A stretch of 64,000 nt of DNA, from assembly GCA_037139515.1 (NCBI GenBank), contig JBAXGH010000004.1, positions 7,514 to 71,513 of the forward strand, written 5' to 3'. A model generated the notes under the pieces. That model was not told the DNA's origin and ran no database searches. It saw only the letters and a program-made list of their open reading frames with translations. This document shows, piece after piece, positions 4,100-63,073 of this stretch (position 1 is the stretch's first letter; the number at the start of each line of letters is the position of its first letter). The translations under genes and the position numbers were made by a program. This DNA comes from a bacterium (GTDB lineage: Bacteria; Patescibacteriota; Patescibacteriia; JBAXGH01).

Positions 4100-4380
4100 G
4101 GTACCAACTGCGGTATCACGAAGCTGTGCTAGAAGCCGACATTCTGCGAATAGATAAAACAAACCGAATCAGAATAAAAATTGCCATCGAAAGCCGTCTG
4201 CAGACATTTCCGGAAAGATACGGAAAACCGCTCCGAAGTCCGCTTCAGGGTTATTGGAAACTAAGGGTTGGAGACTATCGCGTAGTCTTTATGATGGTTG
4301 GAGATGAAGTCAAAATAATCGCGATTCAGCATCGAAGTTTTGTTTATAAAAGTGAATCGGATTTAAAATCGCGAACATGA
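4090..4380 (+). CDS. RelE/ParE-family toxin
   Basis: GKPLRSPLQGYWKLRVGDYRVVF..EVKIIAIQHR is a RelE/StbE-like motif. Confidence 0.8.
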   Translation: MEIRYQLRYHEAVLEADILRIDKTNRIRIKIAIESRLQTFPERYGKPLRSPLQGYWKLRVGDYRVVFMMVGDEVKIIAIQHRSFVYKSESDLKSRT

Positions 4381-4841
4381 ACATCCTAGGCATCGATCCT
4401 GGCTTTGGTCGTCTCGGTTACGGCGCCGTGCGCGTCATTCGCGATACGCCGGAACTTATTTTGTGCGGCTGTTTGGAGACGCCGAAAGAAATGGCACATG
4501 GTGATCGCTTAGTCGCGGTGAGGCGCGAGGTTTTACGATTGCTTGATGAAATCCGTCCGGCTGCGGTCGGTGTTGAAACTTTGTTTTTCTCAAAAAATAT
4601 CAAAACGGCGATTAAAGTTGCCGAAGCGCGCGGCGTGATTTTGGAAACTTTGGCTGAACGGGGCGTGCGGATCATCGAATGTTCGCCGCAGGAAGTTAAA
4701 CTCGCCGTTACCGGTTACGGCAATGCCGAGAAGCAGCAAGTTCAGGAAATGGTGCGAATTTTTTTGAAATTAAAATCCGTGCCGAAGCCGGATGATGCCG
4801 CCGACGCACTCGCGCTCGCAATTGCGGCAAGTCGGATGTGA
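4377..4841 (+). CDS. ruvC: Crossover junction endodeoxyribonuclease RuvC
   Basis: An ILGIDPG start, an RNase H-like catalytic layout, and PDDAADALALAI at the C-terminus. Confidence 0.85.
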   Translation: MNILGIDPGFGRLGYGAVRVIRDTPELILCGCLETPKEMAHGDRLVAVRREVLRLLDEIRPAAVGVETLFFSKNIKTAIKVAEARGVILETLAERGVRIIECSPQEVKLAVTGYGNAEKQQVQEMVRIFLKLKSVPKPDDAADALALAIAASRM

Positions 4842-4874: not shown

Positions 4875-7286
4875 ATGGCGGAAACAAAACCAAGTGATGT
4901 CAAAATAGTCGAGAATCTGGAAGGCGAGATGATTGATATTTTCGAGGCACCCAGAAAAGAATTTTCGGATGCGGCAGAAGAACTGTTTGGGCTCGAAAAA
5001 TTTACTGATGAGTTAAAAGTGGCGGAGATTTCAGTCCGCAGCAAAATCCGCGATGATGTTGGGGAAAAAGGATATGCGGAAGAACTGTCTGCTGGAACTC
5101 TAGCTAAACTGTTAGCTTTTGGAGCAAAATTATTGTCCGCTAAAGACGGTTTGAAGACCGCAAATTTGGTTCGGGTGCCGGAAGAGGGGATGAAGATCGT
5201 TGGAGTAGAGGAAGATGGCAAAAAATTTGAGCGCCTACTTACAGTTGATGAACAGGATTTTATTTTTGATTTGGAACTGAGTGCCGAGCAAGAATTGATG
5301 GCGGAAAATGTTCGCAGATTCAAAGTTTTTTTGGATGAGACATCTAAACTTTTGGAGGGCAGAGAGATGGAGGATCGCGAAAAGGAACTCCGCTTTATTG
5401 TTCGGCAACACTATAAATTGCTCGGTTTTTCCGCACAGGATGTAGATGTGCTTTTGGCCTCCGCTGGTTCGGGAATTCCCGAATTACACCCTGGTTCCAA
5501 GCCTGATGTTGATCGATTAGAAATCATGAAGCGGGTTTGGAATGAATATCTGACTCGGGCCGATAAGGGAAAGACGGCGGCTTTTGCCGGGGCGATGATG
5601 TGCATGGGCGCTTTTGAAGGTATCGCACCGAAAATCAGCCAGCAGCTTTTTGACTCGCCGGATATGCAATCGGCGGCGCTTTTCGGAGCGGCTTTTATGC
5701 TCATGCATCAGGTTACGGGGCGTTCAAAGGCGTTCATCGAGGAAAAGTATGGAATATTTATGCATGGGATTCTTGAACGATCAGGCGGTCTTTACGATCG
5801 AATTGGTCGGGCAGTCGTGAATATTCCGGGAGAGCAATTCTCTGAATCTGGCATAATGGAAAGAGGGCGTGTTTTTAGTCACGGCGAAGCGGCAATCGAT
5901 TCGACTCTGCGAGACGTTGTTCAGTCGCAGATTCCACAAATCGTAAGCCTCGGAACTACGATCGCGCTCCTGATTCAAACCGATTGGAGGTATGGTGCAG
6001 CTTCTTTGGTTTCTCTGCCGATTTCGATGTATGTTGAAAAGAGAATGCAGCGCAGAGTTGATGATGATTTGGATAGAGTTCGTGAACTGGCAAGGGCTAG
6101 TGAAGAAAGAGGCGAGAGGCTGAAAAAGGCGCATATCGAGGTGGCGCTTTCGGGAATGAGAAACATCATGTCCGATGCATATAAAGAGCTGCGTCAGACC
6201 GGGAATCGAAGGTCCGAGGCAATGACGTCTGATAGGAATAAAGACCGGATCTTGATGACGGATCTGATTGATCCTTTTTTTAAGATGTGGACGGTGGTGC
6301 TCGGAGTGGCTCTGCGGGCCGCCGGAAGCGGGGATGCCGGCAAAATTATTATGGCTCTGCAGTCGACCGAAGTTTTTAAAGGTTCAATCATGAATCTGAG
6401 CCGACAATATTCAAGATTATTTAGGTCATGTCGAGACGTGGTGGCTTTTGAGCGCGATCTTTTGATAACCGATGTGGAAGAAGCGGCGGATAAGAATCGT
6501 TTACCGGTTCAAGAAGTTCAGGAATATGCGTTTGAGTTGAAGGGCGTTGATTTTACTCAAGGCGATGCTCGGATTATAAAAAACGCCAGTTTTCAGGTAC
6601 CCGGTGGGGCGGTGGTTCGGCTTTCGGGTGAAAGCGGCCATGGAAAAACTACCTTAACTAAATTAATCACGGGATATTTTTCGCCATCAGTCGGGAGCGT
6701 GCTGCTTGACGGTCGCCCGATTGGAAATTTTAAGAAATCCGGGCCGGAATCGATTTATACGCGCTTTGCGTATCTAAATCAGATACCTTATGTGGAAGAG
6801 ACAGGGACTTTGCGAACGAATTTGATGTTTGGGAATGTTTCTAATAGTGATGATGTTTCGGAGGAAGATGAGGCTTTGATGCGCGATGTGATTGCCAGGT
6901 TGGGGCTGACTTCAAACCGTTTTTTGAAGAATGGCGTGGTTAATTTAGATGAAAGTGTGCGTGGAGTTTCTGGCGGTGAGCGCCGGCGTATCGGAATTGC
7001 GCGATTGCTTATGCGTTTGCGTAAAATGAAAGACGGCGGACTTGTGGTTTTGGATGAGCCGGCTGACGGTTTATCGGAAGATATGGAGCTTGAACTCGCA
7101 CAATTTATTCGTGAGGAAAAATTACGAAACCCAAAACTGACTTTGATTGTGGTGAGCCATCGCAGTAACTTTGTGCGTGGAATCGAGGGGGCTGAAACCG
7201 AGAATCCGCTCAATGTTCAAGAGGTGAATGTGCACATGGGAACGATAGTCGACGAGCTGCCTAAAAATCAGAAACCGGTTTTGTGA
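4875..7286 (+). CDS. Atypical ABC-type ATPase with a large N-terminal domain (~540 aa) and predicted TM segments
   Basis: The C-terminal domain has Walker A GESGHGKTT, the signature VSGGERRRIGIARLL and Walker B LVVLDEPADGLSED. The N-terminal region matches nothing I recognise. Confidence 0.7.
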   Translation: MAETKPSDVKIVENLEGEMIDIFEAPRKEFSDAAEELFGLEKFTDELKVAEISVRSKIRDDVGEKGYAEELSAGTLAKLLAFGAKLLSAKDGLKTANLVRVPEEGMKIVGVEEDGKKFERLLTVDEQDFIFDLELSAEQELMAENVRRFKVFLDETSKLLEGREMEDREKELRFIVRQHYKLLGFSAQDVDVLLASAGSGIPELHPGSKPDVDRLEIMKRVWNEYLTRADKGKTAAFAGAMMCMGAFEGIAPKISQQLFDSPDMQSAALFGAAFMLMHQVTGRSKAFIEEKYGIFMHGILERSGGLYDRIGRAVVNIPGEQFSESGIMERGRVFSHGEAAIDSTLRDVVQSQIPQIVSLGTTIALLIQTDWRYGAASLVSLPISMYVEKRMQRRVDDDLDRVRELARASEERGERLKKAHIEVALSGMRNIMSDAYKELRQTGNRRSEAMTSDRNKDRILMTDLIDPFFKMWTVVLGVALRAAGSGDAGKIIMALQSTEVFKGSIMNLSRQYSRLFRSCRDVVAFERDLLITDVEEAADKNRLPVQEVQEYAFELKGVDFTQGDARIIKNASFQVPGGAVVRLSGESGHGKTTLTKLITGYFSPSVGSVLLDGRPIGNFKKSGPESIYTRFAYLNQIPYVEETGTLRTNLMFGNVSNSDDVSEEDEALMRDVIARLGLTSNRFLKNGVVNLDESVRGVSGGERRRIGIARLLMRLRKMKDGGLVVLDEPADGLSEDMELELAQFIREEKLRNPKLTLIVVSHRSNFVRGIEGAETENPLNVQEVNVHMGTIVDELPKNQKPVL

Positions 7287-15468: not shown

Positions 15469-15540
15469 AGCGGGTAAAGGGAGTCGAACCCTTGTGTAGG
15501 GTTTGGAAAACCCCCATAATAACCGTTATATGATACCCGC
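15469..15540 (-). tRNA. tRNA-Gly (anticodon UCC)
   Basis: Manual fold: acceptor stem GCGGGTA/TACCCGC, anticodon loop TTTCCAA, T-loop TTCGACT, discriminator U. CCA is not encoded. Confidence 0.8.
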
Positions 15541-15593
15541 ATGGGTATTTTTCTGTTTCGAAATTATACTCAAAGGTGGTTTTTTCGTCTAGT

Positions 15594-15977
15594 CTATGTT
15601 CGTCCGCAACTTTGGCATCTGGTTCCGTATGGTGAGGTGAAGCCGGTCATCGAGCCGTCATTGGCTTTTTGGCAGGTCAGGCAGTAGCTCTGTGCGATTT
15701 TATTGAAAATACAGATATAGCGCGGTTGACCGCTATCAAGCCTCGGCCCGTTTACAATGTGATGGTTCTTTAATAGGGTCAGTTCCTGAACGACTGAATT
15801 TCGGGTTAGGTGGAAACCTTTTCTAAATAGAAGAACTCGAATTTCTTCGATGCCGAAAGCGCGACTCTTAATTGCGAGGATTGAAATCAGCTCGCTTCTA
15901 AGCGGGCTCAGCGCATAGCCGGCATTCTGAAGTTTTCGCAAGATCAAGTTTGCAATCATACTAATCGTATTATACAA
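15594..15977 (-). CDS. Fur-family transcriptional regulator
   Basis: A winged-helix N-terminus (SPLRSELISIL...NSVVQELTLLKNHHIV) and a C-terminal HH/Cys cluster (CLTC...CQSC). Confidence 0.65.
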   Translation of the reverse strand: MYNTISMIANLILRKLQNAGYALSPLRSELISILAIKSRAFGIEEIRVLLFRKGFHLTRNSVVQELTLLKNHHIVNGPRLDSGQPRYICIFNKIAQSYCLTCQKANDGSMTGFTSPYGTRCQSCGRT

Positions 15978-16002
15978 AAATCACAGTTTCCTGTGACTCT
16001 TG

Positions 16003-16079
16003 TGGTCGGGCTGCCGAGACTTGAACTCGGAACCTTCTGCTCCCAAAGCAGACGCGATAGCCAATTACGCTACAGCCCG
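16003..16079 (-). tRNA. tRNA-Pro (anticodon UGG), CCA encoded
   Basis: Manual fold: C1-G72 acceptor stem, anticodon loop TTTGGGA, T-loop TTCAAGT, discriminator A, then CCA. Confidence 0.8.
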
Positions 16080-16305
16080 ATGATATGAGTGTTGCAGTTT
16101 TGTGGTCGGCGCGAATACGAGCCGCGAAGCGGCAGAATCCGGAACGATGACGACGAAAATAGCAATTTTCGATCGTTAGCGGAACGGATTCGAATCGCGA
16201 AGCGATTAAGTATTCGCGTTGCGGTTTCAAAAGTATTACCGAATGAAGCTGGGATGTATCGAGCAGGGCTCGATACACTCCTACCTTTTAAAAACCGCAT
16301 TCCTG

Positions 16306-16377
16306 TGCCGAAGGGCAGAGTCGAACTGCCTACGCCTGCCTCTTCAGGGCAGCGCTCTACCGGTGAGCTACTTCGGC
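16306..16377 (-). tRNA. tRNA-Phe (anticodon GAA)
   Basis: Manual fold: acceptor stem GCCGAAG/CTTCGGC, anticodon loop CTGAAGA, T-loop GTTCGACT, discriminator A. Confidence 0.8.
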
Positions 16378-16452
16378 AAGGGAATACGGTTTTTGATTGT
16401 GCCGTGACTGTCCCAAGGTCAGCCGATAACAGGTATGTTATCACCTAACCCT

Positions 16453-16528
16453 GGTGGGCGTGCCAAGAATCGAACTTGGGACCTCGTCATTATCAGTGAC
16501 GCGCTCTAACCATCTGAGCTACACGCCC
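16453..16528 (-). tRNA. tRNA-Ile (anticodon GAU), CCA encoded
   Basis: Manual fold: acceptor stem GGGCGTG/CACGCCC, anticodon loop CTGATAA, T-loop TTCGATT. It is not adjacent to the 16S gene. Confidence 0.8.
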
Positions 16529-20717: not shown

Positions 20718-23700
20718 ATGGGTTCGGAGCTTGGTGTTGAAAATATTCTTGAACGCGAGCCGGATCATCGCGACACGCCAATAACAGAACCGCTTGAAAA
20801 ATTGCGGCGTGTTTTGGATACGGTCACGAAGGCGGAAAATATTCATAAAAAAGCACTCGAGGCTAATCAAAAAAAGGAAAAAGAGGCTGATGCGAGGTTG
20901 CATTCGCTGCGTGAAAAATCGACTGTTGAGCAGTTGGAGCATTTTGTCGGATTTGAAAAAGATCCGGAGTTTTTGGCTAAAATAGATGAGATAACTCAGA
21001 AGCTGGCTAAGGCCGCCGGGTTCACCAGAAAAGTGAAAACGATTTCTGTTTCCGGTGATACCATTAACGCTTTTGTTTATGTAGATAAATCGCCGGGTTC
21101 GAACGAGGACGCGCCCGGTGTTTATACCGGCTCACAAAATGAAGGGCATATTGTCTTTTTATATACCGGACTTGTAACCAAGCTTGCTGAACATTTAGCA
21201 AAGCAGGGAAAGAAACTCAACGAGGGTCATATAGCGGGTGTTTTAGCTCACGAGATGCGCCATCTGATTCAACAAAAAGAAAAAAGAAGCGAAAAAGTGA
21301 CCAGAAAACAGGAAGAATATGATGCTGATTTGGGTGGCGTCGAGTTGATGGGGCGTGCCGGGTATAGTCCGCGAGACGTGGTCGAGACGATGGACTTCTT
21401 AAAAGAGCTTTCCAAACGAATGCCGTATTCCAAGTCGCATCCGGCGGCCGCTAGTCGTATTGTCGAAATTTCAGGCCGGATTTCTAATCCTGATTTGCCG
21501 GTGCCCGGCATTGAAATTCCGAGTGTTGAACTTACGGCGCTTCCAAAAACCCAAACTTACGAAGGTAGATTCGATGAAAGTTTTGAAGCTTCGAAACCTG
21601 GGGGCGAGGTTACTGATTTTGTGCGCAATCTTTTGAGCAATTCCGAATCGATGTTTGATTTGCACGTTAAAAGATCTATCGCTTCAAGTGCGATAGATCT
21701 TGCATTTGCGAAAGAATTTGTGAACAGGCCTGAGATTCCGGGATTTTTCATGCAATATCTGCTTTTGGAAGGTCGGGCGGCGGAACAAGAAATTCAGAAT
21801 GAAGAAACTGTCATAAAAAATATCGAAGATGACGTTCTGGGTCTTGAAGCTAAGAAAATGTCAGGCGGTATCAGTAATGAAGAAGAATATAAACTCAATG
21901 AGTGGAAAGAAAGTATTCGCTTTCATCAAAAAAGTCTCGCTAGGGCTAAGCTTGGTGGCGATTCGCGTCTGCAGCTTACATATAATCTGACGCACGAATC
22001 GCGGCTCAAAGCTTGGGGTGGGGAACTTCCGCGGCTTGATTCCGAGGCTTCGCTTAGAATGCAGAGTAACACTGAGGAAAAGATTAACCGTGAAAAGTTT
22101 TTAGTTGAGAATGGATCATTAGCCGGTGGTCGCGAAGAAGCTCATTTGGAAGTTAAAGCTAATCAAAACGTAAATTGGGATGAGGCGGCTTCTGAGTGGT
22201 TAGCTGGAAAAGGTTTTTCAGGTGTTCATAAAGACACTCTTGAACTTGGTTATAAGCGAATTCAGGCTTCTTTTAAGAATGCTCAATCTAATAAAGATGA
22301 GTTGGTTAAGGGATTTGCTTTCGAGCTTGATAGGATGAATAGGCTGGAAGGCCTCGCGAAAGAGCAGGAATCGCGGCGACTGAGCGCTGTAGTTGCGGAT
22401 GATTTTAGGAATAAGTTTCAGGAAATACTTGATGCTGATCTGCCAAAAGATATTCCGGATAGCGAGCGTGCTCAAATATATGAACTATTTGCCGGAGCCT
22501 TTGATCCGATTCAATTAAGCGAGCCCGGCGCGAAAGCGGTTTTGGAATTTTTGAAAAAAGAGATCTTCGATAATAATTCGATAGATGTGGGCGGAAAGGC
22601 TGGAACGTTGACTAGCCAAAAGCCTGCAAGATTCAATTTGTATTATGTCGTTCGCGCGGTGGTCGAATCCGGGGTCAGTTTGGACGCCGAGTACTTAAAT
22701 AAAACAATCAGTGAACTTAAAATAAAATGCCCGGCTGAGATTTCCGCTTTCGAGCGCTTAGAGAAACTTAACCGTGAAACGCGGCTTTTGAGTGAGGAGG
22801 GCACAGCCGCGGGATATTATCTGGATACTGGTAGTAAACTACCTTCGGCCGAGCGTGATATTCTGAGAAAAAAAATAGTTTCTAACCTTTCTCGTTCGCA
22901 TCGGGATGTTTTTGGTTTTTTAATCCTTGCCTATGGTCTGTATCTCCCGAAAGATGGATTTCTGGATAAGGAATCATCGGCGCTTTTCTTGATTAAACTG
23001 ATTAAGGATGGCTACGACGATCATGTCATGACCGGTGTTCTTGGAAAACTCCAGGAGAAATCGCCGAGTGACAGAGAGACCAGACTTCGTATCGGCTCTT
23101 TGTATGATAGGCTGAAAAATCCAAGACGAAATACATATGATGCGTCGGGCAGCGAACTGGATTCGCTGTTGGAATTTATTAAAGCGGAAGGGATTCCGCT
23201 TCCAGAGGCGCTCGCCGAAGTCTATCGTCATAACCTTGAAGGCTCAGACGTATTTTTGGAGTATAAAAAACTTTGGCAGAACGGCGACCTGAAGGGTGCG
23301 GATTTAAGAAAATACTATGAGCTTATTCGCGGCATCGAAAGACGAACCAACGATTTCGGTTACGAACCGCATGCACACGGCATTCTGGCGTTCATTTCGG
23401 CGGAGCATTTTGAGAAAACTGATCCGGTCTTTGCTGCGAAAATCGTGGATGATCAGATGGGCGAATATAAATATAGTGAAAAAATTTATGAAGAGAAGCT
23501 TTCTTTTGAGCAAATAATTGCAGATTTCCCGAAAGGAAAACTTCGTAACGGTTTGCTTCATGATTGCTGGAAACGCAATGGTGCGAGTATTTCTGACTTT
23601 GAAAAGTTGAGCCCATTTTTCACTGAGGAACCGGAATCTTATGGGATGAAGGGTGAAAATAATCTCGGAGCTGGTTTTGTGATTATCTTCGGTAATAATA

Positions 23701-25970
23701 TCGAAGAGGGAAGCTTTGGCGGTAGCACGGAGGCTCAGAATAGTTATCGTGCGCGTGAGCAGAGCGGCGAAATGGTTGATTATAACTCCGGGCATTGGTA
23801 CGCAGATATAGATCGTCTGGGTTGCCTAGAATCCATCTACGCAAAACAACCAGAATATTTGCTGGATACCAAAAAGACATATTTAGAAAACAAAAAGAGA
23901 ATTCTTGAACTCTGCCCGAAATCACAATTTCGAGATTATCTTTTGATGAAAGCACTTGGTCTTGAGGTTCAGGGGAAACGTGGACTCTCGCGTGAATTTT
24001 CGATTTCACCGCTTGCTGATCGGCTGAATAATCCTGCTTTAATTGGCGCCACTGAAAATTCGGTTAATTTTATTGATACCTGGAAGTTTCCGGAAATGAC
24101 CCCGGCAATTTCAAAATATACTAAGTTTACGGAAAAAGCACGTGAAATTTTCAGCGAGCTTCGTTCCGATGATGCAAAAGATTTGCTTACAAGAATGGTT
24201 CTTGATAACGCGCCGAAAGATCTGCCGGAGCTTGAACTTCTTCGAATTACCGAATTTTATCCGGAGCCCTGCGTAGCGCGCGATGATTATCTGAAGAAGT
24301 TCATGCTTCGGAATTCTCTGAGCATTGAAAAGATTCAGGAGTTGCGCAAACTTTTCACGACCGAAGCGTTGCGTGGCGGGGAAGTTCCGCAAATGAAGAT
24401 GCTCGGACTGGAAGTCGCAAGAACCGAAGGGCGGCGACTCAAGAATAAAAAACGCAGTGATTATGTGAACTGGATTTTGGGCGTCGATAAGTATCCGCCG
24501 ACCGAAATGATGAATGCTGGCGGTGCTTTTGGTTTTTCTTTTGAAAGTATTCGCAACGGATTTGCGGGCTTAACCGAAACCGAACGCGAGCGTTCTTTTG
24601 ATGAGCTCCTTTTGCATGATGAGGGAATGCTGGATCCGAAGACTCCGGAGGATCACGAGGCGATGGATAATTTTTTGCGAAAAGTTTATCGCGAAAAATT
24701 TTCGGCTAAGAAAAATACAGAAGCGGAGGCGGAAAATGATATTTTTGAAAAAGTCTTCATGACGGTTTTTCAGAATTTCATTCCGGAGCGTCGAGCGAAA
24801 CTATTTTCCGCACTTTATTCGGCGATGAAAGATAAAAAAGGCGAGAGAATGGAATTCGAAGAGCTTGCCGGCACGTTTCTGGAACAAATTGGCGCCGTTG
24901 GAATCAAACTTGGCCAGATTCTTTCATCGAATGATAATTTACCTTTCAGCCGTGAGAATAAACCGATGCCGAAAAAGCTAAAAGATCGTCTGAAGCGGTT
25001 AAAAGATGGTGTTAGGCCGTTCTCAGTGATCGGTTCCGCTCAGCGCCTGGTTGATTTTGGTCTTGATAAGCAAGTCAAAACAATCGACGGACTCCTTGCC
25101 GCCGCTTCAATCAAGCAGGCGCATTCGGTAACGCTTGCGAACGGCGAGCGCGCGGTTTTGAAGGTGCGTCGCCCGGTTATCGATGATGTTCGCAATGATT
25201 TTGAGGTTCTGGGCGCGGTCTTTAAGGTTTTGAACGAAAATGGTTATCAGGTGCCAAAGTATCTATTGTCTGAGCTCGAAACCATCATTGCCGACGAAGC
25301 TGATTTCACCAAAGAGGCTTCAAACCAGCAGTTGCTTAGCGAAAATATGCCCGAGAGAGTTGGCGGCATGAAGGCGAAGACTCCGGAGATTAGCGCTACC
25401 GCGAGAGGCGTTATGCTTGAAAGGTTTGCTTCCAGCACACCGTATGAAAAATTCAAAAACAAGAATCCGGAAGAAGCTGGCAGAATTTCCGGCGATCTTG
25501 GGCTCGAGATATTGCGCGGGCTCACGAAGACCGGCGTTCTGCACGCCGATTTGCATGACGGAAATATTTTTGTCGATGGTGCCGGAAAAGAAATGACTCT
25601 GATTGACGCCGGTGCCGTTGCCGACATCAGAAAAGTTCAAAAATCAGTGCTCAGGATTTATAAAGGTCTCTCGATGAAAAATAGTCGCATGGTCGCGAAG
25701 TCGATTATCGCGCTTTCGGAGAAGTCCGACCTGGATGCAGAAGCCCTTGCCGGTTCACTCGAAGCAATCGTGAATAGCGGTGAAGGCGTTGATAAAAAGG
25801 CCACCAAACTTTCGTTTGAAATTCTTAATTCGGTTAATCCCGGACCGGAATTGCGATACTTTTTGAAAGCGCTCGCGACCGGCGGACATCATATCGATAA
25901 GATAGATGCGACGAAACCGAAAAATGCGTGGGAACTCGCAAAAGCCGGTGTTAGAATCATGGCTTCTTAA
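20718..25970 (+). CDS. Giant protein (1750 aa) with an N-terminal HExxH zincin-like motif, a long helical middle and a C-terminal UbiB/ABC1-family atypical kinase domain
   Basis: LAHEMRHL at ~aa 180. The C-terminus has AAASIKQAHSVTLANGERAVLKVRRP, VLHADLHDGNIFV and LIDAGAV, which matches the ABC1/UbiB kinase signature. Confidence 0.8.
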   Translation: MGSELGVENILEREPDHRDTPITEPLEKLRRVLDTVTKAENIHKKALEANQKKEKEADARLHSLREKSTVEQLEHFVGFEKDPEFLAKIDEITQKLAKAAGFTRKVKTISVSGDTINAFVYVDKSPGSNEDAPGVYTGSQNEGHIVFLYTGLVTKLAEHLAKQGKKLNEGHIAGVLAHEMRHLIQQKEKRSEKVTRKQEEYDADLGGVELMGRAGYSPRDVVETMDFLKELSKRMPYSKSHPAAASRIVEISGRISNPDLPVPGIEIPSVELTALPKTQTYEGRFDESFEASKPGGEVTDFVRNLLSNSESMFDLHVKRSIASSAIDLAFAKEFVNRPEIPGFFMQYLLLEGRAAEQEIQNEETVIKNIEDDVLGLEAKKMSGGISNEEEYKLNEWKESIRFHQKSLARAKLGGDSRLQLTYNLTHESRLKAWGGELPRLDSEASLRMQSNTEEKINREKFLVENGSLAGGREEAHLEVKANQNVNWDEAASEWLAGKGFSGVHKDTLELGYKRIQASFKNAQSNKDELVKGFAFELDRMNRLEGLAKEQESRRLSAVVADDFRNKFQEILDADLPKDIPDSERAQIYELFAGAFDPIQLSEPGAKAVLEFLKKEIFDNNSIDVGGKAGTLTSQKPARFNLYYVVRAVVESGVSLDAEYLNKTISELKIKCPAEISAFERLEKLNRETRLLSEEGTAAGYYLDTGSKLPSAERDILRKKIVSNLSRSHRDVFGFLILAYGLYLPKDGFLDKESSALFLIKLIKDGYDDHVMTGVLGKLQEKSPSDRETRLRIGSLYDRLKNPRRNTYDASGSELDSLLEFIKAEGIPLPEALAEVYRHNLEGSDVFLEYKKLWQNGDLKGADLRKYYELIRGIERRTNDFGYEPHAHGILAFISAEHFEKTDPVFAAKIVDDQMGEYKYSEKIYEEKLSFEQIIADFPKGKLRNGLLHDCWKRNGASISDFEKLSPFFTEEPESYGMKGENNLGAGFVIIFGNNIEEGSFGGSTEAQNSYRAREQSGEMVDYNSGHWYADIDRLGCLESIYAKQPEYLLDTKKTYLENKKRILELCPKSQFRDYLLMKALGLEVQGKRGLSREFSISPLADRLNNPALIGATENSVNFIDTWKFPEMTPAISKYTKFTEKAREIFSELRSDDAKDLLTRMVLDNAPKDLPELELLRITEFYPEPCVARDDYLKKFMLRNSLSIEKIQELRKLFTTEALRGGEVPQMKMLGLEVARTEGRRLKNKKRSDYVNWILGVDKYPPTEMMNAGGAFGFSFESIRNGFAGLTETERERSFDELLLHDEGMLDPKTPEDHEAMDNFLRKVYREKFSAKKNTEAEAENDIFEKVFMTVFQNFIPERRAKLFSALYSAMKDKKGERMEFEELAGTFLEQIGAVGIKLGQILSSNDNLPFSRENKPMPKKLKDRLKRLKDGVRPFSVIGSAQRLVDFGLDKQVKTIDGLLAAASIKQAHSVTLANGERAVLKVRRPVIDDVRNDFEVLGAVFKVLNENGYQVPKYLLSELETIIADEADFTKEASNQQLLSENMPERVGGMKAKTPEISATARGVMLERFASSTPYEKFKNKNPEEAGRISGDLGLEILRGLTKTGVLHADLHDGNIFVDGAGKEMTLIDAGAVADIRKVQKSVLRIYKGLSMKNSRMVAKSIIALSEKSDLDAEALAGSLEAIVNSGEGVDKKATKLSFEILNSVNPGPELRYFLKALATGGHHIDKIDATKPKNAWELAKAGVRIMAS

Positions 25971-25982
25971 CTTTAGAAAAAT

Positions 25983-26801
25983 ATGGAACCAAATGAGCAT
26001 ACGGGATTTAGTGATGTAAAGGATTCTCAGCGTGAGCCGACGGTTGCAAGGGCTCCAGATATTGATAAGCCTCATGCGGAGGAACCCGCTGAGCTGAAAC
26101 ATCGGCTCGCGTCGATGAAACGCGAGGATTTTGCTGAATATTTGATACATCATGGAAAAGAATTTGGTGAGATGGTTCAGATTCCGAGGTTTGGATCAGA
26201 CGTAAATCAGGTCTATGGAGTGATTACGAGAAGACCGGAGTTTCGCGGTCTTTCGGAAAAAGAAATCGATAAAGCGGTCAAGCCTTTGGAAGATGAAGTA
26301 TCGGGACCGTCACAGGTCTTTGGAATGCCACAGGTGATTCGTTCAATTAGAATTCAGGAAGAAACAAAAAATAGAGAAAATGTCGTTTATGAGTTTTCCG
26401 GCGCGTTCTTGAGTTGGAAATTTCGTAATGGCTCGACGGAAGACGTAGCTCATAAAAAAGCCTGGATTACGCTTCCAGATCCGCTTCATGAAATTACACC
26501 GCAACTAATAGGTAATGTGATTGAAGCTATCGTAGCTTCAGGTTTTTCAGGAAACCTGAAAATATTAAATCGCACCAAAGCAATAGTCAGACGCTACGAG
26601 AATATCACTATTCATGCGGATAACGATGAAGAACTCGATAAAGCGCAAAAAGCTGCGGTTCATGCCTTGCTCTTGGATGGCGTTATGCCGCAGGGTGTAG
26701 CGCGAGGACAGGATTCGGTCGAAATGTCTGATAATCAACTCTTGGCGGGAAAAATCTGCAAGGCGCTGACGCCAAATGGCAAAATAACCTGGTGGTTTTA
26801 G
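25983..26801 (+). CDS. Unknown-domain protein, paralog A (one copy of a ~250-aa domain)
   Basis: Shares ELK(H/R)RLASMKREDF...VITRRPEFRG...HKKAWITL.DP..EITP...TIHADNDDE.DKAQKA...PQGVARG with the two domains of the next gene. Confidence 0.6.
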   Translation: MEPNEHTGFSDVKDSQREPTVARAPDIDKPHAEEPAELKHRLASMKREDFAEYLIHHGKEFGEMVQIPRFGSDVNQVYGVITRRPEFRGLSEKEIDKAVKPLEDEVSGPSQVFGMPQVIRSIRIQEETKNRENVVYEFSGAFLSWKFRNGSTEDVAHKKAWITLPDPLHEITPQLIGNVIEAIVASGFSGNLKILNRTKAIVRRYENITIHADNDEELDKAQKAAVHALLLDGVMPQGVARGQDSVEMSDNQLLAGKICKALTPNGKITWWF

Positions 26802-26890
26802 GCGGACATCACATTGATAAAATTGATGTGAGCGATCCGAAGAGCGCTCAGGAACTCGCAAAAGCCGGTGTCAGAATCATGGCTTCTTAA
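26802..26890 (+). repeat. Duplicated 3'-end fragment of the giant gene (would encode GGHHIDKIDVSDPKSAQELAKAGVRIMAS*)
   Basis: Near-identical to 25881-25970 (GGHHIDKIDATKPKNAWELAKAGVRIMAS*). It is followed by the same spacer-and-start arrangement (ATGGAACCAA...). Confidence 0.6.
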
Positions 26891-26902
26891 TCTTAGAATA
26901 CT

Positions 26903-36150: not shown

Positions 36151-36954
36151 TTAGAGCTTAGCGATATCTTTTTGGGACTTACGCCACTCTGCTATCTTTG
36201 CATGATCGCCGGACATCAAAACTTCCGGGACTTTCCATTTTTTATAAACCGCCGGTCGCGTGTACTGCGCGGATTCAAGCACGCCCGGAGTGTTATGAGA
36301 TTCTTCGGTGAGTGATTCGGCGGCGCCCAAGACTCCAGGGATTTGGCGGGCGACGGCATCAATTACAACGAGTGCCGGTAATTCGCCACCGGTTAAAACA
36401 TACGGTCCGATACAAATTTCTTCGTCGATAAGATTTTCCGCGACGCGTTCGTCGATGCCTTCATAGCGACCGCAGAGCATCGTGATGCGTTTATATTTCG
36501 AAAGTCGCATGGCGTCTTGTGCGGTGAATGGTTTGCCTTTCGCTGAAAATAAAATCACGCGTTCAGTTTTTTTGCCGCGCTTGGCTTTGATTGCTTTGAG
36601 TGCGAGATCGAAAGGCTCGACGCGCATGACCATGCCCGGCCCGCCGCCGAAGGGTTTATCATCAACCGACTGATAATTGTTGCCCGACCAGTCACGCAAA
36701 TTATGGGCCGTGACTTTAATCAAGCCAGTGCCGGTTGCCCGACCGATGATGGAAACGCTTGTATACGGAGTAATTACTTCGGGTAAAATGGTTAGGACGT
36801 CGAAAGTTAATTTAGGCCGTAGGCCACAGGCCGTAGGGCGTAGGGCAACGTTTCGAAAAGTAGTACTATGGCCTACGGCCTGCAGCCTACGGCCTAGTAT
36901 TGATTTTTTGTTTTCTTGCTTTCTTGATTTTTTTGTCATAGTAAACTTGTTCAC
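36151..36954 (-). CDS. trmD: tRNA (guanine37-N1)-methyltransferase TrmD with a repeat-encoded N-terminal extension
   Basis: The core from LTFDVLTILPEVITPY to the C-terminus matches TrmD. The first ~47 codons overlap the GGCCGTAGG palindromic repeat, and no canonical start lies right at the core. Confidence 0.8.
   Translation of the reverse strand: MNKFTMTKKSRKQENKKSILGRRLQAVGHSTTFRNVALRPTACGLRPKLTFDVLTILPEVITPYTSVSIIGRATGTGLIKVTAHNLRDWSGNNYQSVDDKPFGGGPGMVMRVEPFDLALKAIKAKRGKKTERVILFSAKGKPFTAQDAMRLSKYKRITMLCGRYEGIDERVAENLIDEEICIGPYVLTGGELPALVVIDAVARQIPGVLGAAESLTEESHNTPGVLESAQYTRPAVYKKWKVPEVLMSGDHAKIAEWRKSQKDIAKL
36813..36897. repeat. ~85-bp palindrome built from GGCCGTAGG-family repeats, inside the trmD 5' region
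   Basis: ggccgtaggccacaggccgtagggcgtaggg (36815-36845) and the inverted partner ggcctacggcctgcagcctacggcc (36870-36894). Confidence 0.65.
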
Positions 36955-37445: not shown

Positions 37446-38031
37446 CCGAATTTTTGATGAGGCTCGGGAGGCCGATAAAGGGGACGACGAAATCAAAATC
37501 GAATTGCGGGAGAAGGCCGTAGCATTGCGGGTCGGGCGTGAAATGAAATTCTTTGCCCGGGAAAATTTTGGTTTCGAAGATTTGCATTAGATCGGTTTTG
37601 ACTTTCGCGATATCTTCACCTGTCACAGCGGCGGAATATTCTTTGATGGCGTTTTGCCAGGAGACTTCGTCTTTCGCGAGAGTTTCGACGGATAATTTCA
37701 GGTGATCCGGCGGTTCCAAGCGCACGAAACTCAAATAAGTTGGTTCGCCGAGGACGTTCGTGGCTGTCGCGAATTTAAAAATATAAATCTTCCACTGCAT
37801 GCCGTTAAGTGCGACCGGTTCTTTGACCGCAACCCAATCGGCATCGCGAAGTTGATTGTGTTCATCAAGAAGCGCACCGCTCAAAACAAATTCGGTTTTG
37901 ATGGCTTCGGAAACTTTTTTATATTGCTCGGAGGCGAAAACTTGCTCGAGCTGTTTTTGGATGTCCATATTATTTTGCCAAATGCCGGTAAATATCATGA
38001 GCACCGATAGAGTAGAAGACAATGTCCGCAT
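37438..38031 (-). CDS. Secreted hypothetical protein. The start is uncertain and overlaps the upstream toxin gene.
   Basis: Signal-peptide-like N-terminus. It overlaps the RelE gene by ~60 nt if the first ATG is used. Confidence 0.45.
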   Translation of the reverse strand: MRTLSSTLSVLMIFTGIWQNNMDIQKQLEQVFASEQYKKVSEAIKTEFVLSGALLDEHNQLRDADWVAVKEPVALNGMQWKIYIFKFATATNVLGEPTYLSFVRLEPPDHLKLSVETLAKDEVSWQNAIKEYSAAVTGEDIAKVKTDLMQIFETKIFPGKEFHFTPDPQCYGLLPQFDFDFVVPFIGLPSLIKNSGK

Positions 38032-38248
38032 TGTCCATGCGCTTGAAAATTATGCGAATGTTCATCGTGACAGAAATTGACCAGGACTCTTTGAGCTCGC
38101 CGCTGAGTTGATGCAACCTGAGCGATGGATGAAGCGGGTTATTGCGAAACATGGATTCGGTCTTTGCGGCGCGTTTTTGAATCATCGAATCAAGCTTTTG
38201 AAATTCCTGCACGAATTTCGGATGATAAAGAATGGTTTTGACAACCAT
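37970..38248 (-). CDS. RelE/YafQ-family toxin
   Basis: LHPSLRLHQLSGELKESWSISVTMNIRIIF...IVFYSIGAHDIY. Confidence 0.7.
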   Translation of the reverse strand: MVVKTILYHPKFVQEFQKLDSMIQKRAAKTESMFRNNPLHPSLRLHQLSGELKESWSISVTMNIRIIFKRMDNADIVFYSIGAHDIYRHLAK

Positions 38249-39058: not shown

Positions 39059-39187
39059 GGCCGTGTAGCGTGTAACGTGTAGCGTGTATCGTCAACAGTG
39101 AGGACGATACAAGATACAGGATACACGATGTGGTTCTTGCGTTTTAGGCAGAGCTGCCATGACGCTTATAAGTTGGCGTTGATGCGA

Positions 39188-41174: not shown

Positions 41175-41939
41175 TTAGCTTGCACTCAGCTGTGCACTCT
41201 TACGGAACTTCAAAGTTGCGATGGCCTCCTTGAGTGACGTAATCACGCTCGATGGTTCGTGGCGACTTTTCGCGTAGCTGATTTGATGCCCATTCGCGAG
41301 AACCCGGGTCTCGAAGTATCGAGTGTATTCGCGGGTATCGACTGCGAGTTCGAGATGCAACTCGATCCCAAGATCTTTCATCTCCTTGCGCAGGATCAGA
41401 AGATCCGAGTCAGCCATGTCGGTGAGCTTTTTTCCGAACATGCGTTTGAATAGTGCGATTCCGGCTTCGGGACCTTGATCAAGGTCGTAGGCTCCGAAGA
41501 TTGCCTCCAGGACATCGGCCAGGATTTTCGGATTCCGTTCGATTGCGAGTGCCGAGCATCGCACGAATTTTGCGATTCCGAGCTCTGTGCAGATTTCGGA
41601 GAACATCTTGTTGGTGAGCAGTGTCTCCTTATTTTGCATGAGCTCAACGAGCGCCACTGATTCGCTGCGCAGCGCCATGAGGCGGAGCAGATAATACCTC
41701 ATGACAGCGTCGCCAAGGTGCTCAAGCGTGACGTAGTCCGGCGTCATATCCGGAAAGTTATCCTCGTCCGGCTTGTAGCTTGAGTGCGTGATTGCCTGGA
41801 GCAGGAGCTTCTTGTTCTTGAAGTTGATTTTCAGAATCTTTTCGATTGCCCGCAAATCGTCCAGCGTATTTTCACTGAGCTCGTCCACGATGGTCCTCTG
41901 ATGATTGGCTTCTGAATTGAAGCTCACATGATATAGCAA
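41175..41939 (-). CDS. rnc: Ribonuclease III
   Basis: The QAITHSSY signature, LEHLGDAVMRYYL, and a C-terminal dsRBD. Confidence 0.85.
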   Translation of the reverse strand: MLYHVSFNSEANHQRTIVDELSENTLDDLRAIEKILKINFKNKKLLLQAITHSSYKPDEDNFPDMTPDYVTLEHLGDAVMRYYLLRLMALRSESVALVELMQNKETLLTNKMFSEICTELGIAKFVRCSALAIERNPKILADVLEAIFGAYDLDQGPEAGIALFKRMFGKKLTDMADSDLLILRKEMKDLGIELHLELAVDTREYTRYFETRVLANGHQISYAKSRHEPSSVITSLKEAIATLKFRKSAQLSAS

Positions 41940-42632: not shown

Positions 42633-43763
42633 TCAAGGCTTGAGCTTATTATCGGCGCCGATGGCTTCGGAGATATTTTTAAACCCGTCACGCTTCAAAA
42701 GCTCAATCAATCCGGCATTGATCTCGCCGACTAACTGTGGTCCTTCAAAAATCATACCCGTAATGAGTTGGAGCAGGGAAGCGCCGGCGCGAATTTTTAG
42801 GTAAGCATCTTCGGCGCTAAAAATGCCGCCGCAACCGACAAGCGTAAATCGCGAACCGTATTTTTTATATAAGTGTGAGAGTTGAGCGTTGGCTTTTTCT
42901 TCGACGAGTTTTCCGGAAAGTCCACCGTGAGTCGGGCGCAGCGCCTCGGGAACGGCTTCGTAGGTTTTGGTGAGATTGCTCGAAATCAAGCCTTGAATTC
43001 GGTGGCGCGCGGCGACATCGATCAGCGAATCAAGCTGTTCAAACGTCAGATCCGGTGAAAGTTTTATAAAGATAGGCCGTGGGCCGTAGGCCGTAGGGCG
43101 TAGGGAAACATTTTCGAGCGCAGTGAGCAGCTTTTCTAAGCGCGGGGCATCATTAAAAGGTTGGCCGCCGAATGCATTCGGGCAGCTGATATTGATTGTT
43201 ATGTAATCAGCGGTATCTTTTACGGCTTCCAGGGCGGCGCCATAGTCCGCAATCGCGGCTTCGTCTTCGGCGGTTTCGGCGCAATTAGTTTTAGCGATAC
43301 TTACTCCGACCGGAAAACGATGAGACACGGCGTGTAAACGAACCGCGACATTCGCCGCGCCTTCGTTCTTTAAACCATACCAAACCACAAGTGATTGCTG
43401 ATCTTTGAGGCGCCAGAGCCGCGGTTTTGGATTTCCCGCGCAGGTTTTTCCTGTGACTGATCCGGCTTCCATAAAGCCGAATCCAACGTCAGGCAAAATA
43501 TTTAAAAGATGAGCGTCTTTATCAAAACCGGCGGCGAGTCCAACCGGATTTTTAAATTCAAGTCCGCGAATATTTTGGACGAGCGACGGGTCTTCGATAT
43601 GAAAAGCTAAGCGAGTGAAAAATCGAGTCACCGAAAAGCGCCCGAGAAACTCGCCGAGGTGAGTCATCGAATCATGAACATCTTCCGGGTCGCGGCGAAA
43701 GAAAAGCGGTTTGGCTAGATTTTTGTAAATGAATCGTGATGTGGCGTGAAAAACTTTTTTCAT
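42633..43763 (-). CDS. pyrD: Dihydroorotate dehydrogenase (quinone type) carrying an in-frame repeat insertion
   Basis: A DHOD family-2 layout (NPVGLAAGFDKDAHLLNILPDVGFGFMEAGSVTGKTCAGNPKPRLWRL; GGIFSAEDAYLKIRAGASL). The segment SLRPTAYGPRPI is encoded by the GGCCGTAGG repeat at 43075-43105. Confidence 0.85.
   Translation of the reverse strand: MKKVFHATSRFIYKNLAKPLFFRRDPEDVHDSMTHLGEFLGRFSVTRFFTRLAFHIEDPSLVQNIRGLEFKNPVGLAAGFDKDAHLLNILPDVGFGFMEAGSVTGKTCAGNPKPRLWRLKDQQSLVVWYGLKNEGAANVAVRLHAVSHRFPVGVSIAKTNCAETAEDEAAIADYGAALEAVKDTADYITINISCPNAFGGQPFNDAPRLEKLLTALENVSLRPTAYGPRPIFIKLSPDLTFEQLDSLIDVAARHRIQGLISSNLTKTYEAVPEALRPTHGGLSGKLVEEKANAQLSHLYKKYGSRFTLVGCGGIFSAEDAYLKIRAGASLLQLITGMIFEGPQLVGEINAGLIELLKRDGFKNISEAIGADNKLKP
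43075..43105. repeat. GGCCGTGGGCCGTAGGCCGTAGGGCGTAGGG repeat, in frame within pyrD
   Basis: The same 31-mer family occurs at 36815-36845 and 62008-62037. Confidence 0.65.
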
Positions 43764-58496: not shown

Positions 58497-58733
58497 ATGA
58501 ACCTTCGTAAAACACTTTTTTGGGACACTGATGTTAAGACAATCAGTTTAAATCGGAACGCTCGATATATTATCGAGCGGGTTTTGGAATTCGGTAATGA
58601 TCGAGAGGTACGTTGGCTTACGAAAGAGTATGGGCGTCGTAAAATCAGAAATGCGGTTCTGGCCAGTCGCTCGCTTGATCGTAAAAGTCGTGCTTTATGG
58701 CTACTTCTCACGGAAAAGAAAACTGGCAAGTAA
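58497..58733 (+). CDS. Small protein upstream of AbiEii. Putative cognate antitoxin.
   Basis: 78 aa, overlapping the nucleotidyltransferase gene by 37 nt. Assigned by position only. Confidence 0.35.
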   Translation: MNLRKTLFWDTDVKTISLNRNARYIIERVLEFGNDREVRWLTKEYGRRKIRNAVLASRSLDRKSRALWLLLTEKKTGK

Positions 58734-59374
58734 AAGTTATGCCGGTCGCGACCAGGCGCGCCCTGGATTTTTTTGCTTCCAAAAAATGGATGCGTGCCTC
58801 TGGGTGGTATTTGGCGGGTGGTACGGCCTTGGCTTTAGCCTGCGGCCATAGGCGCTCGGTGGATTTGGATTTTTTTCAAGCAAAGCCTTTCTCGACTGAT
58901 AGTTTGTTGCGTCACCTGAATACTGACAAGCTTTGGAAGACAGAAAAAATAGAAGAAAACACGGTACATGGATCTTTTGGTGGTGCCAAAATAAGTTTCA
59001 TGACCAACTCATCGTTTCGCCCGGCTTTTTCTTTTGGAGAATATGGCATGGTGCGTATATTAGATGAACGAGATGTCGCCGCGACCAAATTAATTTCCGT
59101 GAGTCAGCGTGGAAAAAAGCGGGATTTCGTTGATCTATTTTGGTATGCTAAAAATCGGGAACCACTTCGGACACTTTTTAATCGTTTTGCAATGCAGTAT
59201 CCCGATGTCGGACGTAATTTTCACCACATAATAAAAAGTTTGGTATATTTTGAGGATGCGGAACGCGATCCGATGCCGCTTGTAAATTTTGCGGTGACCT
59301 GGAAAGAAATAAAAACCTCATTTGTAAAAGATGCTTCCGAACTGTCGCGTGATTTACTTGGTGTTGAGTTATAA
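58697..59374 (+). CDS. AbiEii/DUF1814-family nucleotidyltransferase (type IV TA toxin-like)
   Basis: LAGGTALALACGHRRSVDLDFF is an NTase-fold GS..D.D motif typical of AbiEii. Confidence 0.6.
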   Translation: MATSHGKENWQVKVMPVATRRALDFFASKKWMRASGWYLAGGTALALACGHRRSVDLDFFQAKPFSTDSLLRHLNTDKLWKTEKIEENTVHGSFGGAKISFMTNSSFRPAFSFGEYGMVRILDERDVAATKLISVSQRGKKRDFVDLFWYAKNREPLRTLFNRFAMQYPDVGRNFHHIIKSLVYFEDAERDPMPLVNFAVTWKEIKTSFVKDASELSRDLLGVEL

Positions 59375-61918: not shown

Positions 61919-63073
61919 ATGAACCTCGATTCAACGACGCTCCGATATATTGCCGTGGCTTTGACCGCTCTCGCCGGAGGACTCTATTGGTTTTGGAATC
62001 GCGGTGAGGCCGTAGGCCATCGGCCGCAGGGCGTAGGAGTGCTCAAAAATCTTACCGAACTTGCAAAAACCGGGGCGCTTGATGCCGTCATCGGTCGCGA
62101 TGATGAGATCGATCGCATTATCCAAATCATCCAGCGACGCACCAAAAATAATCCTTTATTGCTTGGCGACCCGGGAGTAGGGAAGACGGCTATCGTTGAA
62201 GGTCTCGCAGTTCGAATCATTAAAAACAATGTTCCGAAGGCTTTACAGGGAAAACAGATATTTGAACTTTCGGTCGCCGAACTGATTGCCGGCACCAAAT
62301 ATCGCGGAGAATTTGAGGAGCGCTTACGTGGCGTTATGAAGGAATTAGAGAAGGCTCCGCGTCAGACGATTTTGTTTGTTGATGAGATTCATCTACTCGA
62401 GCAAACCAAGGGCGCCGAGGGCGCAGTTTCGGCTTCCGATGTTTTGAAGCCAGCGCTTGCTCGTGGTGATGTTTCGATTATCGGTGCCACGACACTCAAA
62501 GAATACGAAGAATATATTCGCCCGAACACGGCGCTCGATCGTAGGTTTCAACCGGTTTTGGTTGCTGAACCGACTCCGGAAGCGGCGCTTGCTGTGCTTC
62601 GTGGTATCGCAAACTTATACGAGAAGCATCACGACGTGATTATCGACGACGACGCGCTTGAAGCCGCGGTCACGCTTTCGATTGAAAAATTAAAGGGTCG
62701 TCGTTTGCCGGACAAAGCGATTGATATCATCGACGAAGCTTCGGCCAAGGTCGCGATTGAAATGCAGGGCGCGCACGCAACGGCCATCGGTGTTATGCAT
62801 GCTGCCGCTGAGAAGTCTCGCGAGAGAGCCGCCAAAGAACGCCAGGATATCGGATTCGAAACCAAGCATTTAGAGGAGTTGTCGAAGAAGTATCCCGGCG
62901 ATCCGGCTCTCATGAGCGCGGAGAAAACCCTGCAGAGACATGAAGCAGAGCTCGCGGTCGTGGCTTCGGCGCGGGTTTCGGACGATGGTCGGGCGCGGGT
63001 TTTGCGCAAAGACGTGGAAGAAGTCATCGCCGCCTGGGCGGATCTTGGAAAAGCCGAGGAAAAATCAAAATAA
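61919..63073 (+). CDS. Clp/Hsp100 D1-type AAA+ ATPase (single domain, membrane-anchored) with an in-frame repeat
   Basis: LDAVIGRDDEIDRIIQIIQRRTKNNPLLLGDPGVGKTAIVEGLAVRI...GTKYRGEFEERL matches ClpA/B D1. N-terminal TM segment. EAVGHRPQGVGV is encoded by the 62008-62037 repeat. Confidence 0.7.
   Translation: MNLDSTTLRYIAVALTALAGGLYWFWNRGEAVGHRPQGVGVLKNLTELAKTGALDAVIGRDDEIDRIIQIIQRRTKNNPLLLGDPGVGKTAIVEGLAVRIIKNNVPKALQGKQIFELSVAELIAGTKYRGEFEERLRGVMKELEKAPRQTILFVDEIHLLEQTKGAEGAVSASDVLKPALARGDVSIIGATTLKEYEEYIRPNTALDRRFQPVLVAEPTPEAALAVLRGIANLYEKHHDVIIDDDALEAAVTLSIEKLKGRRLPDKAIDIIDEASAKVAIEMQGAHATAIGVMHAAAEKSRERAAKERQDIGFETKHLEELSKKYPGDPALMSAEKTLQRHEAELAVVASARVSDDGRARVLRKDVEEVIAAWADLGKAEEKSK
62008..62037. 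repeat. GGCCGTAGGCCATCGGCCGCAGGGCGTAGG repeat, in frame within the Clp-like gene
   Basis: Third member of the 31-bp GGCCGTAGG family. Confidence 0.6.

Follow-up and report, generated by a model that had tools for sequence, protein, structure and literature searches.

How does a short repeat come to be translated within three unrelated conserved genes of a single bacterium? The question is raised by a 64,000-nucleotide (nt) stretch of DNA from a member of the Patescibacteriota (contig JBAXGH010000004.1 of assembly GCA_037139515.1, positions 7,514 to 71,513), hereafter the window, in which a repeat built of GGCCGTA-type heptamers occurs inside trmD, inside pyrD, and inside a gene for an AAA+/Clp-D1-like protein. 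The nearest relatives of the window's proteins are from Patescibacteria (candidate phyla radiation [CPR]), mostly "Candidatus Uhrbacteria." The 31-mer that an earlier note on this sequence had singled out probably represents a single arm of a dispersed element, short in length and built as an inverted repeat. The in-gene copies would then be derivatives, lacking an open reading frame (ORF), of cassettes that carry a gene of the PF05635 type, similar in kind to miniature inverted-repeat transposable elements (MITEs), to Rickettsia palindromic elements (RPEs), or to the hairpin-forming doublets (REPINs) of repetitive extragenic palindromic sequences (REPs).

Copies and anatomy of the repeat element

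The pattern GGCCGTAGGCCNNNGGCCGTAGGGCGTAGG matches the forward strand of the window at positions 36815-36844, 43075-43104, and 62008-62037 with no more than one mismatch, and there are no matches in 100 dinucleotide-preserving shuffles of the window, bearing out the three sites that the earlier note had listed. The 9-mer GGCCGTAGG, with up to one mismatch allowed, occurs 19 times in the window (6.7 expected), and nearly all of these occurrences fall within the repeat sites. A profile search with the arm found no further copies in the window beyond four arms, one of which is an inverted copy in trmD (Table 1).

Each arm consists of TA followed by four tandem heptamers of the GGCCGTA type, neither more nor fewer. 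In one arm, the innermost heptamer is GGGCGTA, the second heptamer from the outer end is variable, and the trmD and pyrD copies have in common a nonperiodic tail of about 12 to 16 nt beyond the heptamers (GGGAAACATTTTCGAGC and GGGCAACGTTTCGA). The fixed number of four units, along with a variant unit and a tail that recur across unrelated genes and contigs, indicates a repeat family rather than chance resemblance.

The complete element comprises two inverted arms separated by a loop of 5 to 23 nt and can form a stem of about 25 to 28 bp. In trmD, the arm had been described as part of an 85-bp palindrome with an inverted partner; the inverted copy is present, and the palindrome measures 84 nt (36813-36896). 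Its predicted RNA fold has an energy of -55 kcal/mol in the sense strand and -60.6 kcal/mol in the antisense strand (z about -9). Lone arms are not palindromic and fold no better than shuffled sequences (z from -0.3 to -1.25). All six full hairpins contain a G.G/C.C mismatch, where GGGCG lies opposite GGCCG, as well as an internal loop at unit 2, indicating that the two arms are systematically unlike each other. A search of Rfam returned no family matching the element. A function of the transcribed strand, as judged from G.U pairing, was considered and dropped, since hairpin energies favor neither strand consistently.

Table 1. Repeat arms, host genes, and other heptamer arrays in the window
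Feature	Position	Strand	Description
Arm A, trmD	36813..36846	+	TA GGCCGTA GGCCACA GGCCGTA GGGCGTA GGGC, then tail AACGTTTCGA; nhmmer E=1.5e-10
Arm B, trmD, inverted fourth copy	36864..36896	-	TA GGCCGTA GGCTGCA GGCCGTA GGCCATA GTA; E=4.3e-9
Complete palindrome, trmD	36813..36896	.	84 nt: arm A, 17-nt loop, arm B; TA...TA ends
Solo arm and tail, pyrD	43073..43119	+	TA GGCCGTG GGCCGTA GGCCGTA GGGCGTA GGGAAACATTTTCGAGC
Solo arm, AAA+/Clp-D1-like gene	62006..62038	+	GA GGCCGTA GGCCATC GGCCGCA GGGCGTA GGA
trmD, host gene	36151..36939	-	262-amino-acid form with ATG at 36939, same as the NCBI protein
pyrD, host gene	42633..43763	-	Class 2 quinone-dependent dihydroorotate dehydrogenase
AAA+/Clp-D1-like host gene	61919..63073	+	N-terminal transmembrane helix, AAA, and AAA_lid_9
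(CGTGTAG)4 hairpin, different family	39062..39129	.	Heptamers, loop, then inverted heptamers; stops 4 nt short of the rpsP (S16) start codon at 39058(-)
Array at trmD 3' end, different family	36135..36161	-	CTAAGCT CTAACCC CTAATCC CTAATCT; first unit forms the trmD stop codon

Translation of the repeats in frame

All four arms in the window lie within long ORFs and can be read without a stop, so that the reading frame is preserved in every copy, as the earlier note maintained. The encoded peptides are LRPTA(C/Y)G(L/P)RP, LGRRLQAVGHS, and EAVGHRPQGVG, and those of the two orientations are as first stated. The tolerance has a simple basis in the sequence, namely that stops are lacking in every frame of one heptamer strand. 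The complement, (TACGGCC)n, which encodes YGLRPTA, contains no stops in any of the three frames. The forward strand presents TAG in each frame once every three units, except where a variant takes the place of the unit read as GG-CCG-TAG. In the copies read forward (the Clp-like copy, arm B in trmD, and locus L054), variants (ATC/GCA, GCTGCA, and ACA) occur precisely at the TAG position. In the Clp-like copy, it is the GCA variant in unit 3 that abolishes the consensus TAG in that frame.

The four coding copies that are read in reverse differ from one another at 6, 8, and 3 sites of codon positions 1, 2, and 3, respectively (60 sites each). This lack of a third-position excess indicates that the sequence is conserved at the DNA level and not at the peptide level. 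Tolerance of palindromic repeats in frame, best known from the RPEs of Rickettsia, is hereby extended to the streamlined genomes of CPR bacteria, and peptides derived from repeats are to be expected when conserved CPR enzymes are annotated.

Placement within the host proteins

In trmD, the palindrome encodes residues 15 to 42 (LGRRLQAVGHSTTFRNVALRPTACGLRP) of the 262 residues of the protein, in an N-terminal coding tail. Computed removal of the 84 nt (28 codons) keeps the frame and yields a TrmD of 234 amino acids that begins MTKKSRKQENKKSIQLTFDV. TrmD orthologs are mostly 211 to 233 amino acids long, and the N-terminal segment of about 45 residues is present in none of them. Translation must pass through the palindrome, since no in-frame start codon occurs between it and the conserved FDVLT motif. 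By these alignments, the palindrome is an insertion relative to the orthologs. Alignments to the top solved TrmD structures start at about query residues 49 to 52, after the repeat-encoded part. The insert, which the earlier note proposed to map onto known structures, is placed in the N-terminal tail, before the aligned region. In a relative (L078, positions 2768-2956), the intergenic region between KhpA and trmD contains a 62-amino-acid ORF that is not in the window. This region, the present site of the palindrome, underwent rearrangement in the window's lineage.

The pyrD copy is read on the minus strand as ...LENVSLRPTAYGPRP..., and its core corresponds to residues 220 to 230. There, SLRPTAYGPRP stands in place of an ancestral segment, which is xTxKP in 16 of 16 orthologs. 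The view that the repeat adds a peptide to PyrD holds insofar as the peptide is absent from these orthologs, but the net gain is 6 residues and not 12. The corresponding loop of human DHODH is of similar length. In a confident AlphaFold model of PyrD (predicted local distance difference test score, 88.9), onto which the insert could be mapped as the earlier note had suggested, the repeat forms the loop between a helix (residues 206 to 217) and a strand (residues 231 to 235). An alpha-to-beta loop lies, by the topology of the TIM barrel, opposite the catalytic face, and the pyrD copy is accordingly predicted to sit on the noncatalytic face of the barrel.

In the AAA+/Clp-D1-like gene, the repeat is read forward as EAVGHRPQGVG (residues 30 to 40) and fills a linker of variable length between the transmembrane helix and the AAA domain. 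The linker of the closest ortholog, which is 75% identical, has the same length, so no net insertion is demonstrable and the claim that the repeat adds a peptide to this protein is not upheld. At L077, the position of the repeat is occupied by a GGCGTC-periodic tract in the Clp ortholog. The L077 linker (GGGGCGTCTGGCGTCGGCGTCGGG) was considered as a decayed orthologous copy, but positional identity is low outside GGCGT(A/C)GG and orthology is not claimed.

Distribution beyond the window

A strict 23-mer scan of 185,579 genomes, one per species, returned a single real relative, a patescibacterial metagenome-assembled genome (JBAZKG01; L002). The other matches were rejected as chance matches in the coding sequence of high-G+C taxa, which are uninformative on distribution. 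A looser scan of metagenomes returned 62 loci, with plain (GGCCGTA)n arrays widespread across many taxa. The four-unit variant of the window type was recovered on seven Patescibacteria-like contigs of about 50% G+C, all from one sample (Ga0194060). On these contigs, full hairpins stand tight against gene ends (L026, L029, L046, and L074) and solo arms are also present, and copies within ORFs occur in an Elp3-like radical-SAM/GNAT gene, in the N terminus of rsmH, and in a GT1 glycosyltransferase gene. The pyrD copy and the glycosyltransferase copy (L052) are 94% identical over 47 nt, including the nonperiodic tail. A profile search with the arm found no copies in 16.5 kb of the nearest relatives, and no orthologs common to the window and the Ga0194060 contig pieces compared with it were found. 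A scan of viral contigs yielded one match, a plain tandem array that is uninformative.

Three of the Ga0194060 hairpins (L026, around 4236-4250; L046, around 6501-6512; and L074, around 5100-5119) have a common extended end, CGCCCTA-AnCTCCAT-ATG, in which the ATG of the gene lies 8 to 9 nt past the element, with no Shine-Dalgarno-like run between them. In these cases, the end of the element may abut or even donate the start codon.

Inverted heptamer arrays around PF05635 genes

At L002, arms of the window family occur in inverted orientation and bracket a gene for a 119-amino-acid protein that matches PF05635 (E=7e-39), the family of 23S rRNA-intervening sequence proteins, which are four-helix bundles (Pfam). 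Homologous PF05635 genes lie within GGCCRTA arrays at L021, L040, and L068, which represent three more unrelated metagenomic lineages of higher G+C content.

Twelve PF05635 genes were inspected in an independent annotated collection (plasmids; records L082-L093), and at least 8 of the 12 have inverted short-period arrays on both flanks. These cases come from Cyanobacteria, Alphaproteobacteria, Bacteroidota, and Gemmatimonadota, including Nostoc, Calothrix, Azospirillum, and Riemerella. The bracketing arrays have a period of 7, sometimes 8, and their units are lineage specific (TAGGGAG, TAGGGTG, GAGGACR, AAGGTTY, and others). Among the remaining genes, one has direct arrays and three have weak or one-sided arrays. 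Within 25 kb of a Nostoc plasmid there are only four period-7 arrays, all of TAGGGAG, two of which bracket the PF05635 gene and two of which are solo.

PF05635 genes are often wedged inside operons, such as those for the alpha and beta subunits of ribonucleotide reductase, cas6-cas4, and cas10-cmr3. The gene located between cas6 and cas4 on a Pseudanabaena plasmid (L084, 490-1050) has long direct arrays on its flanks, with (AAAAGCT)14 on the upstream side and (AAAAGCC)n on the downstream side, and is an exception to the rule of inverted brackets.

The literature searched contained no description of a link between PF05635 and heptamer arrays, although absence there is no proof of novelty. A broad interpretation, which we offer tentatively and regard as rather doubtful, is that inverted heptamer arrays are the termini of widespread, unrecognized PF05635 mini-cassettes. 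The 23S rRNA intervening sequences (IVSs) would then be a special case; the short tandemly repeated repetitive sequences (STRRs) of cyanobacteria, the four-heptamer elements of Geobacter, and the GGCCGTA family of CPR bacteria would be derivatives without an ORF; and the PF05635 protein, a relative of the Avd protein of diversity-generating retroelements, would act on the arms in mobility, maintenance, or RNA processing. If true, this would explain why units are lineage specific while the architecture is conserved from CPR bacteria to Cyanobacteria, Bacteroidota, Alphaproteobacteria, and Gemmatimonadota. The bracketing of PF05635 genes across phyla is a testable lead on the origin of rRNA IVSs, the function of the "23S rRNA IVS protein," and the nature of STRRs.

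Other heptamer arrays at gene boundaries

The window contains five period-7 arrays (none in shuffles) and no arrays with periods of 9 to 12. Two of the families differ from the GGCCGTA element in their units and are situated at the 5' end of rpsP and the 3' end of trmD (Table 1), and at both boundaries a relative (L080) has arrays of its own. Upstream of its S16 gene, at the position that the hairpin has in the window, is a 4+4 hairpin of TAGCTKK units (320-385), and at its trmD 3' end is CTAAAGC CTAACGC CTAGCGC CTAATGC (4709-4732). Further four-unit families, of TTAGAGN and TAGCTNN, occur on related contigs. The (CTAANNN)4 array at the trmD 3' end provides stops in all three frames. A three-frame stop block was considered as a general role and rejected, since it holds for the arrays at trmD 3' ends but not for many GGCCGTA arms, in which the variant unit keeps one frame open, or for several of the PF05635 brackets.

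Origin of the in-gene copies

If the in-gene copies derive from PF05635-type cassettes, they would have spread to new sites from cassettes bracketed by arms and would persist in essential genes only where they are in frame, stop-free, and structurally permissive, as in an N-terminal tail, an alpha-to-beta loop, or an interdomain linker. The solo arms within genes are probably what remains after the loss of one arm of an unstable palindrome, and the small or zero change in length in pyrD and the Clp-like gene could reflect later deletion of an arm or a patch-like replacement. When transcribed, the full hairpin might be long enough to serve as a substrate for RNase III, as is the 28-bp stem of the Coxiella IVS; a gene for RNase III is located at 41175-41939 in the window.

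Several observations weigh against such a derivation. The 64 kb hold just four arms, and there is no transposase, RAYT (REP-associated tyrosine transposase)/Y1, or PF05635 gene among the approximately 47 ORFs of the window (Pfam), nor was any of these detected near the related copies (phmmer for RAYT). A target-site duplication is indistinguishable from the palindrome's own TA ends. The nearest relatives are distant, at about 85% identity across the 16S region, and provide no case of a recent presence/absence polymorphism. The Clp-like copy entails no change in length relative to the ortholog, and what the pyrD copy adds is roughly balanced by what it replaces; simple insertion accounts poorly for both. 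Finally, the relative's heptamer hairpins, with different units, occupy identical gene boundaries, a finding that favors a functional or hot-spot reading for the heptamer class as a whole. Such a reading does not account for translated solo arms within genes.

The functional alternative holds that heptamer arrays are not selfish DNA but punctuation or regulatory devices retained at gene boundaries by selection, serving as RNase III sites, mRNA-stabilizing 5' stem-loops, terminators, three-frame stop blocks, or protein-binding iterons, and that the in-gene copies are by-products or regulators of the host mRNA. Full hairpins do lie 4 to 11 nt from start or stop codons, and the relative has the four-by-seven architecture, built of another unit, at these two boundaries (rpsP 5' and trmD 3'). 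Moreover, the imperfections of the stem are conserved, the element is nearly identical between contigs that otherwise have little DNA similarity, each unit at the trmD 3' end contains a stop triplet, which closes every frame there, a part in transcript stability is suspected for STRRs (PMC2670836), and RNase III is encoded in the window. We consider this account rather unlikely. The solo arms of pyrD and the Clp-like gene are unable to form a hairpin and are translated through, so punctuation is not their role, and solo arms occupy the least conserved segments of their hosts. In addition, hairpin stability does not consistently favor the sense strand, and not all lineages have a stop triplet in every unit. 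A regulatory role would not exclude mobility in any case, REPs being both.

That heptamer tracts arose independently at each site, through local, microsatellite-like replication slippage or selection for a similar peptide, is already disfavored and strikes us as very improbable. Plain (GGCCGTA)n arrays of highly variable length do occur in many unrelated metagenomic contigs, and the Clp ortholog at L077 has its GGCGTC-periodic tract in the same place. However, members of the family always have four units, with GGGCGTA last and a variable second unit, and several have the common nonperiodic tail; opposite orientations yield different peptides; and changes at third codon positions are not in excess. 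An artifact of assembly or binning, in which contigs were joined chimerically at the repeat, merits hardly any credence. Although repeats can cause misjoining and several of the metagenomic heptamer arrays lie at contig ends, an independent Logan assembly (run SRR7053541) matches the window at 100% identity along 4325 bp that include the pyrD copy, which excludes an assembly artifact, and none of the three host ORFs is truncated, each aligning end to end with its orthologs to either side of the repeat. Derivation from arm-bracketed cassettes is, in our assessment, the probable origin of the in-gene copies.

Comparison with known systems

RPEs are about 100 to 150 bp long. They are specific to Rickettsia and lack tandem heptamers, whereas the CPR element has arms of 31 to 47 nt and a hairpin of 84 nt. 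The close parallel to RPEs drawn in the earlier note holds for behavior, in that a dispersed repeat, absent from TrmD and PyrD orthologs, is tolerated in frame in conserved genes, but it does not extend to membership in the family, given the size and architecture of the element. The likeness lies in a dispersed palindrome that occurs in frame in conserved genes, with its peptide in a permissive region, as RPEs are cited in PMC3733652. Insertion into a permissive region is seen for trmD and pyrD (+6 amino acids), and the Clp-like gene shows no change in length.

REPs are short, GC-rich repeats containing GTAG, often arranged as inverted doublets, that lie near or overlap the ends of genes, sometimes supplying stop codons, and some are inside ORFs (PMC3733652). 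The CPR element resembles REPs and REPINs in having inverted doublets that form a long hairpin. It also has GTAG in each heptamer and at the end of the arm, a weak likeness since GTAG is part of the periodic unit. Unlike a REP unit of 20 to 40 nt, however, a single CPR arm is not itself an imperfect palindrome, and unlike the REPIN-RAYT system, no RAYT was found among the ORFs of the window or at related loci and all copies in the window are intragenic. The element behaves like an RPE, but membership among RPEs or REPs fails on size and on the palindromy of single arms. The terminal inverted repeats are also a feature of MITEs; the cassette at L002 has the same arms, but its PF05635 gene is no known transposase.

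The closest architectural analogues are the four-heptanucleotide elements of Geobacter, STRRs, REPs inside ORFs, and IVS stems. Gmet_H4 of Geobacter metallireducens consists of four tandem heptanucleotides (GGGACCG) and is present in 49 copies within and between genes, including an NADH dehydrogenase subunit gene and the linker of a Ddl-FtsQ fusion; its authors read these as regulatory RNA elements (PMC2700814). The CPR family likewise has exactly four tandem heptamers and is multicopy within and between genes, but its unit is GGCCGTA rather than GGGACCG, and neither inverted pairing nor a link to PF05635 appears in the source (PMC2700814). STRRs are 7-bp tandem repeats that are capable of forming hairpins and are intergenic (PMC2670836). 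The heptamer arrays on the Nostoc and Calothrix plasmids similarly bracket PF05635 genes; STRRs differ in being variable in length and intergenic, with units of TAGGGAG and TAGGGTG in Nostocales, whereas the CPR family has four units and is translated. In Coxiella, the IVS places an S23p ORF within a stem of 28-bp inverted repeats, interrupted by one mismatch and one bulge, that RNase III cleaves (PMC4990558), and PF05635 ORFs are also found in CPR rRNA insertions (PMC11270868). The L002 cassette, a PF05635 gene between heptamer arms of 28 to 31 nt, and the nearly perfect stem of about 28 bp in trmD are reminiscent of this arrangement. However, the copies in the window are in protein-coding genes and not rRNA, the loop in trmD is 17 nt and has no ORF, and the window is without a PF05635 gene.

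The repeat had also been thought undescribed for this lineage. The literature searched contained no description of the repeat or of any in-frame repeats in CPR bacteria (absence there not being proof of novelty), but REPs in ORFs of several species and the in-gene elements of Geobacter are known (PMC3733652, PMC2700814).

Other features of the window

A 38-nt motif (TTTCAAGATCCCTCGGCCGTCGAGGATGACAAC) with a small hairpin (CCTCGgccgTCGAGG) at 32305-32342 is 97% identical to positions 5091-5128 of L027, a contig that is otherwise unrelated; the site in the window is about 1 kb past the 3' end of the 16S rRNA gene. This 16S rRNA gene is complete (33424-34920, minus strand), and the window contains no 23S rRNA gene next to it. 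Four tRNA genes are clustered at 15469-16528 (minus strand). Genes of the toxin-antitoxin type are several for a small genome and are located at 1910-2176, 4090-4380, 37970-38248, and 58697-59374 (HigB/RelE-like, ParE-like, YafQ/HigB-like, and AbiEii nucleotidyltransferase toxin). The region from 20718 to 31648 contains large genes, mostly without Pfam matches, one of which encodes a 1750-amino-acid protein that combines an M48 peptidase domain with an ABC1 kinase domain. The motif LK(H/R)RLASMKREDF is common to two neighboring ORFs that resemble paralogs (25983-26801 and 26903-28459).

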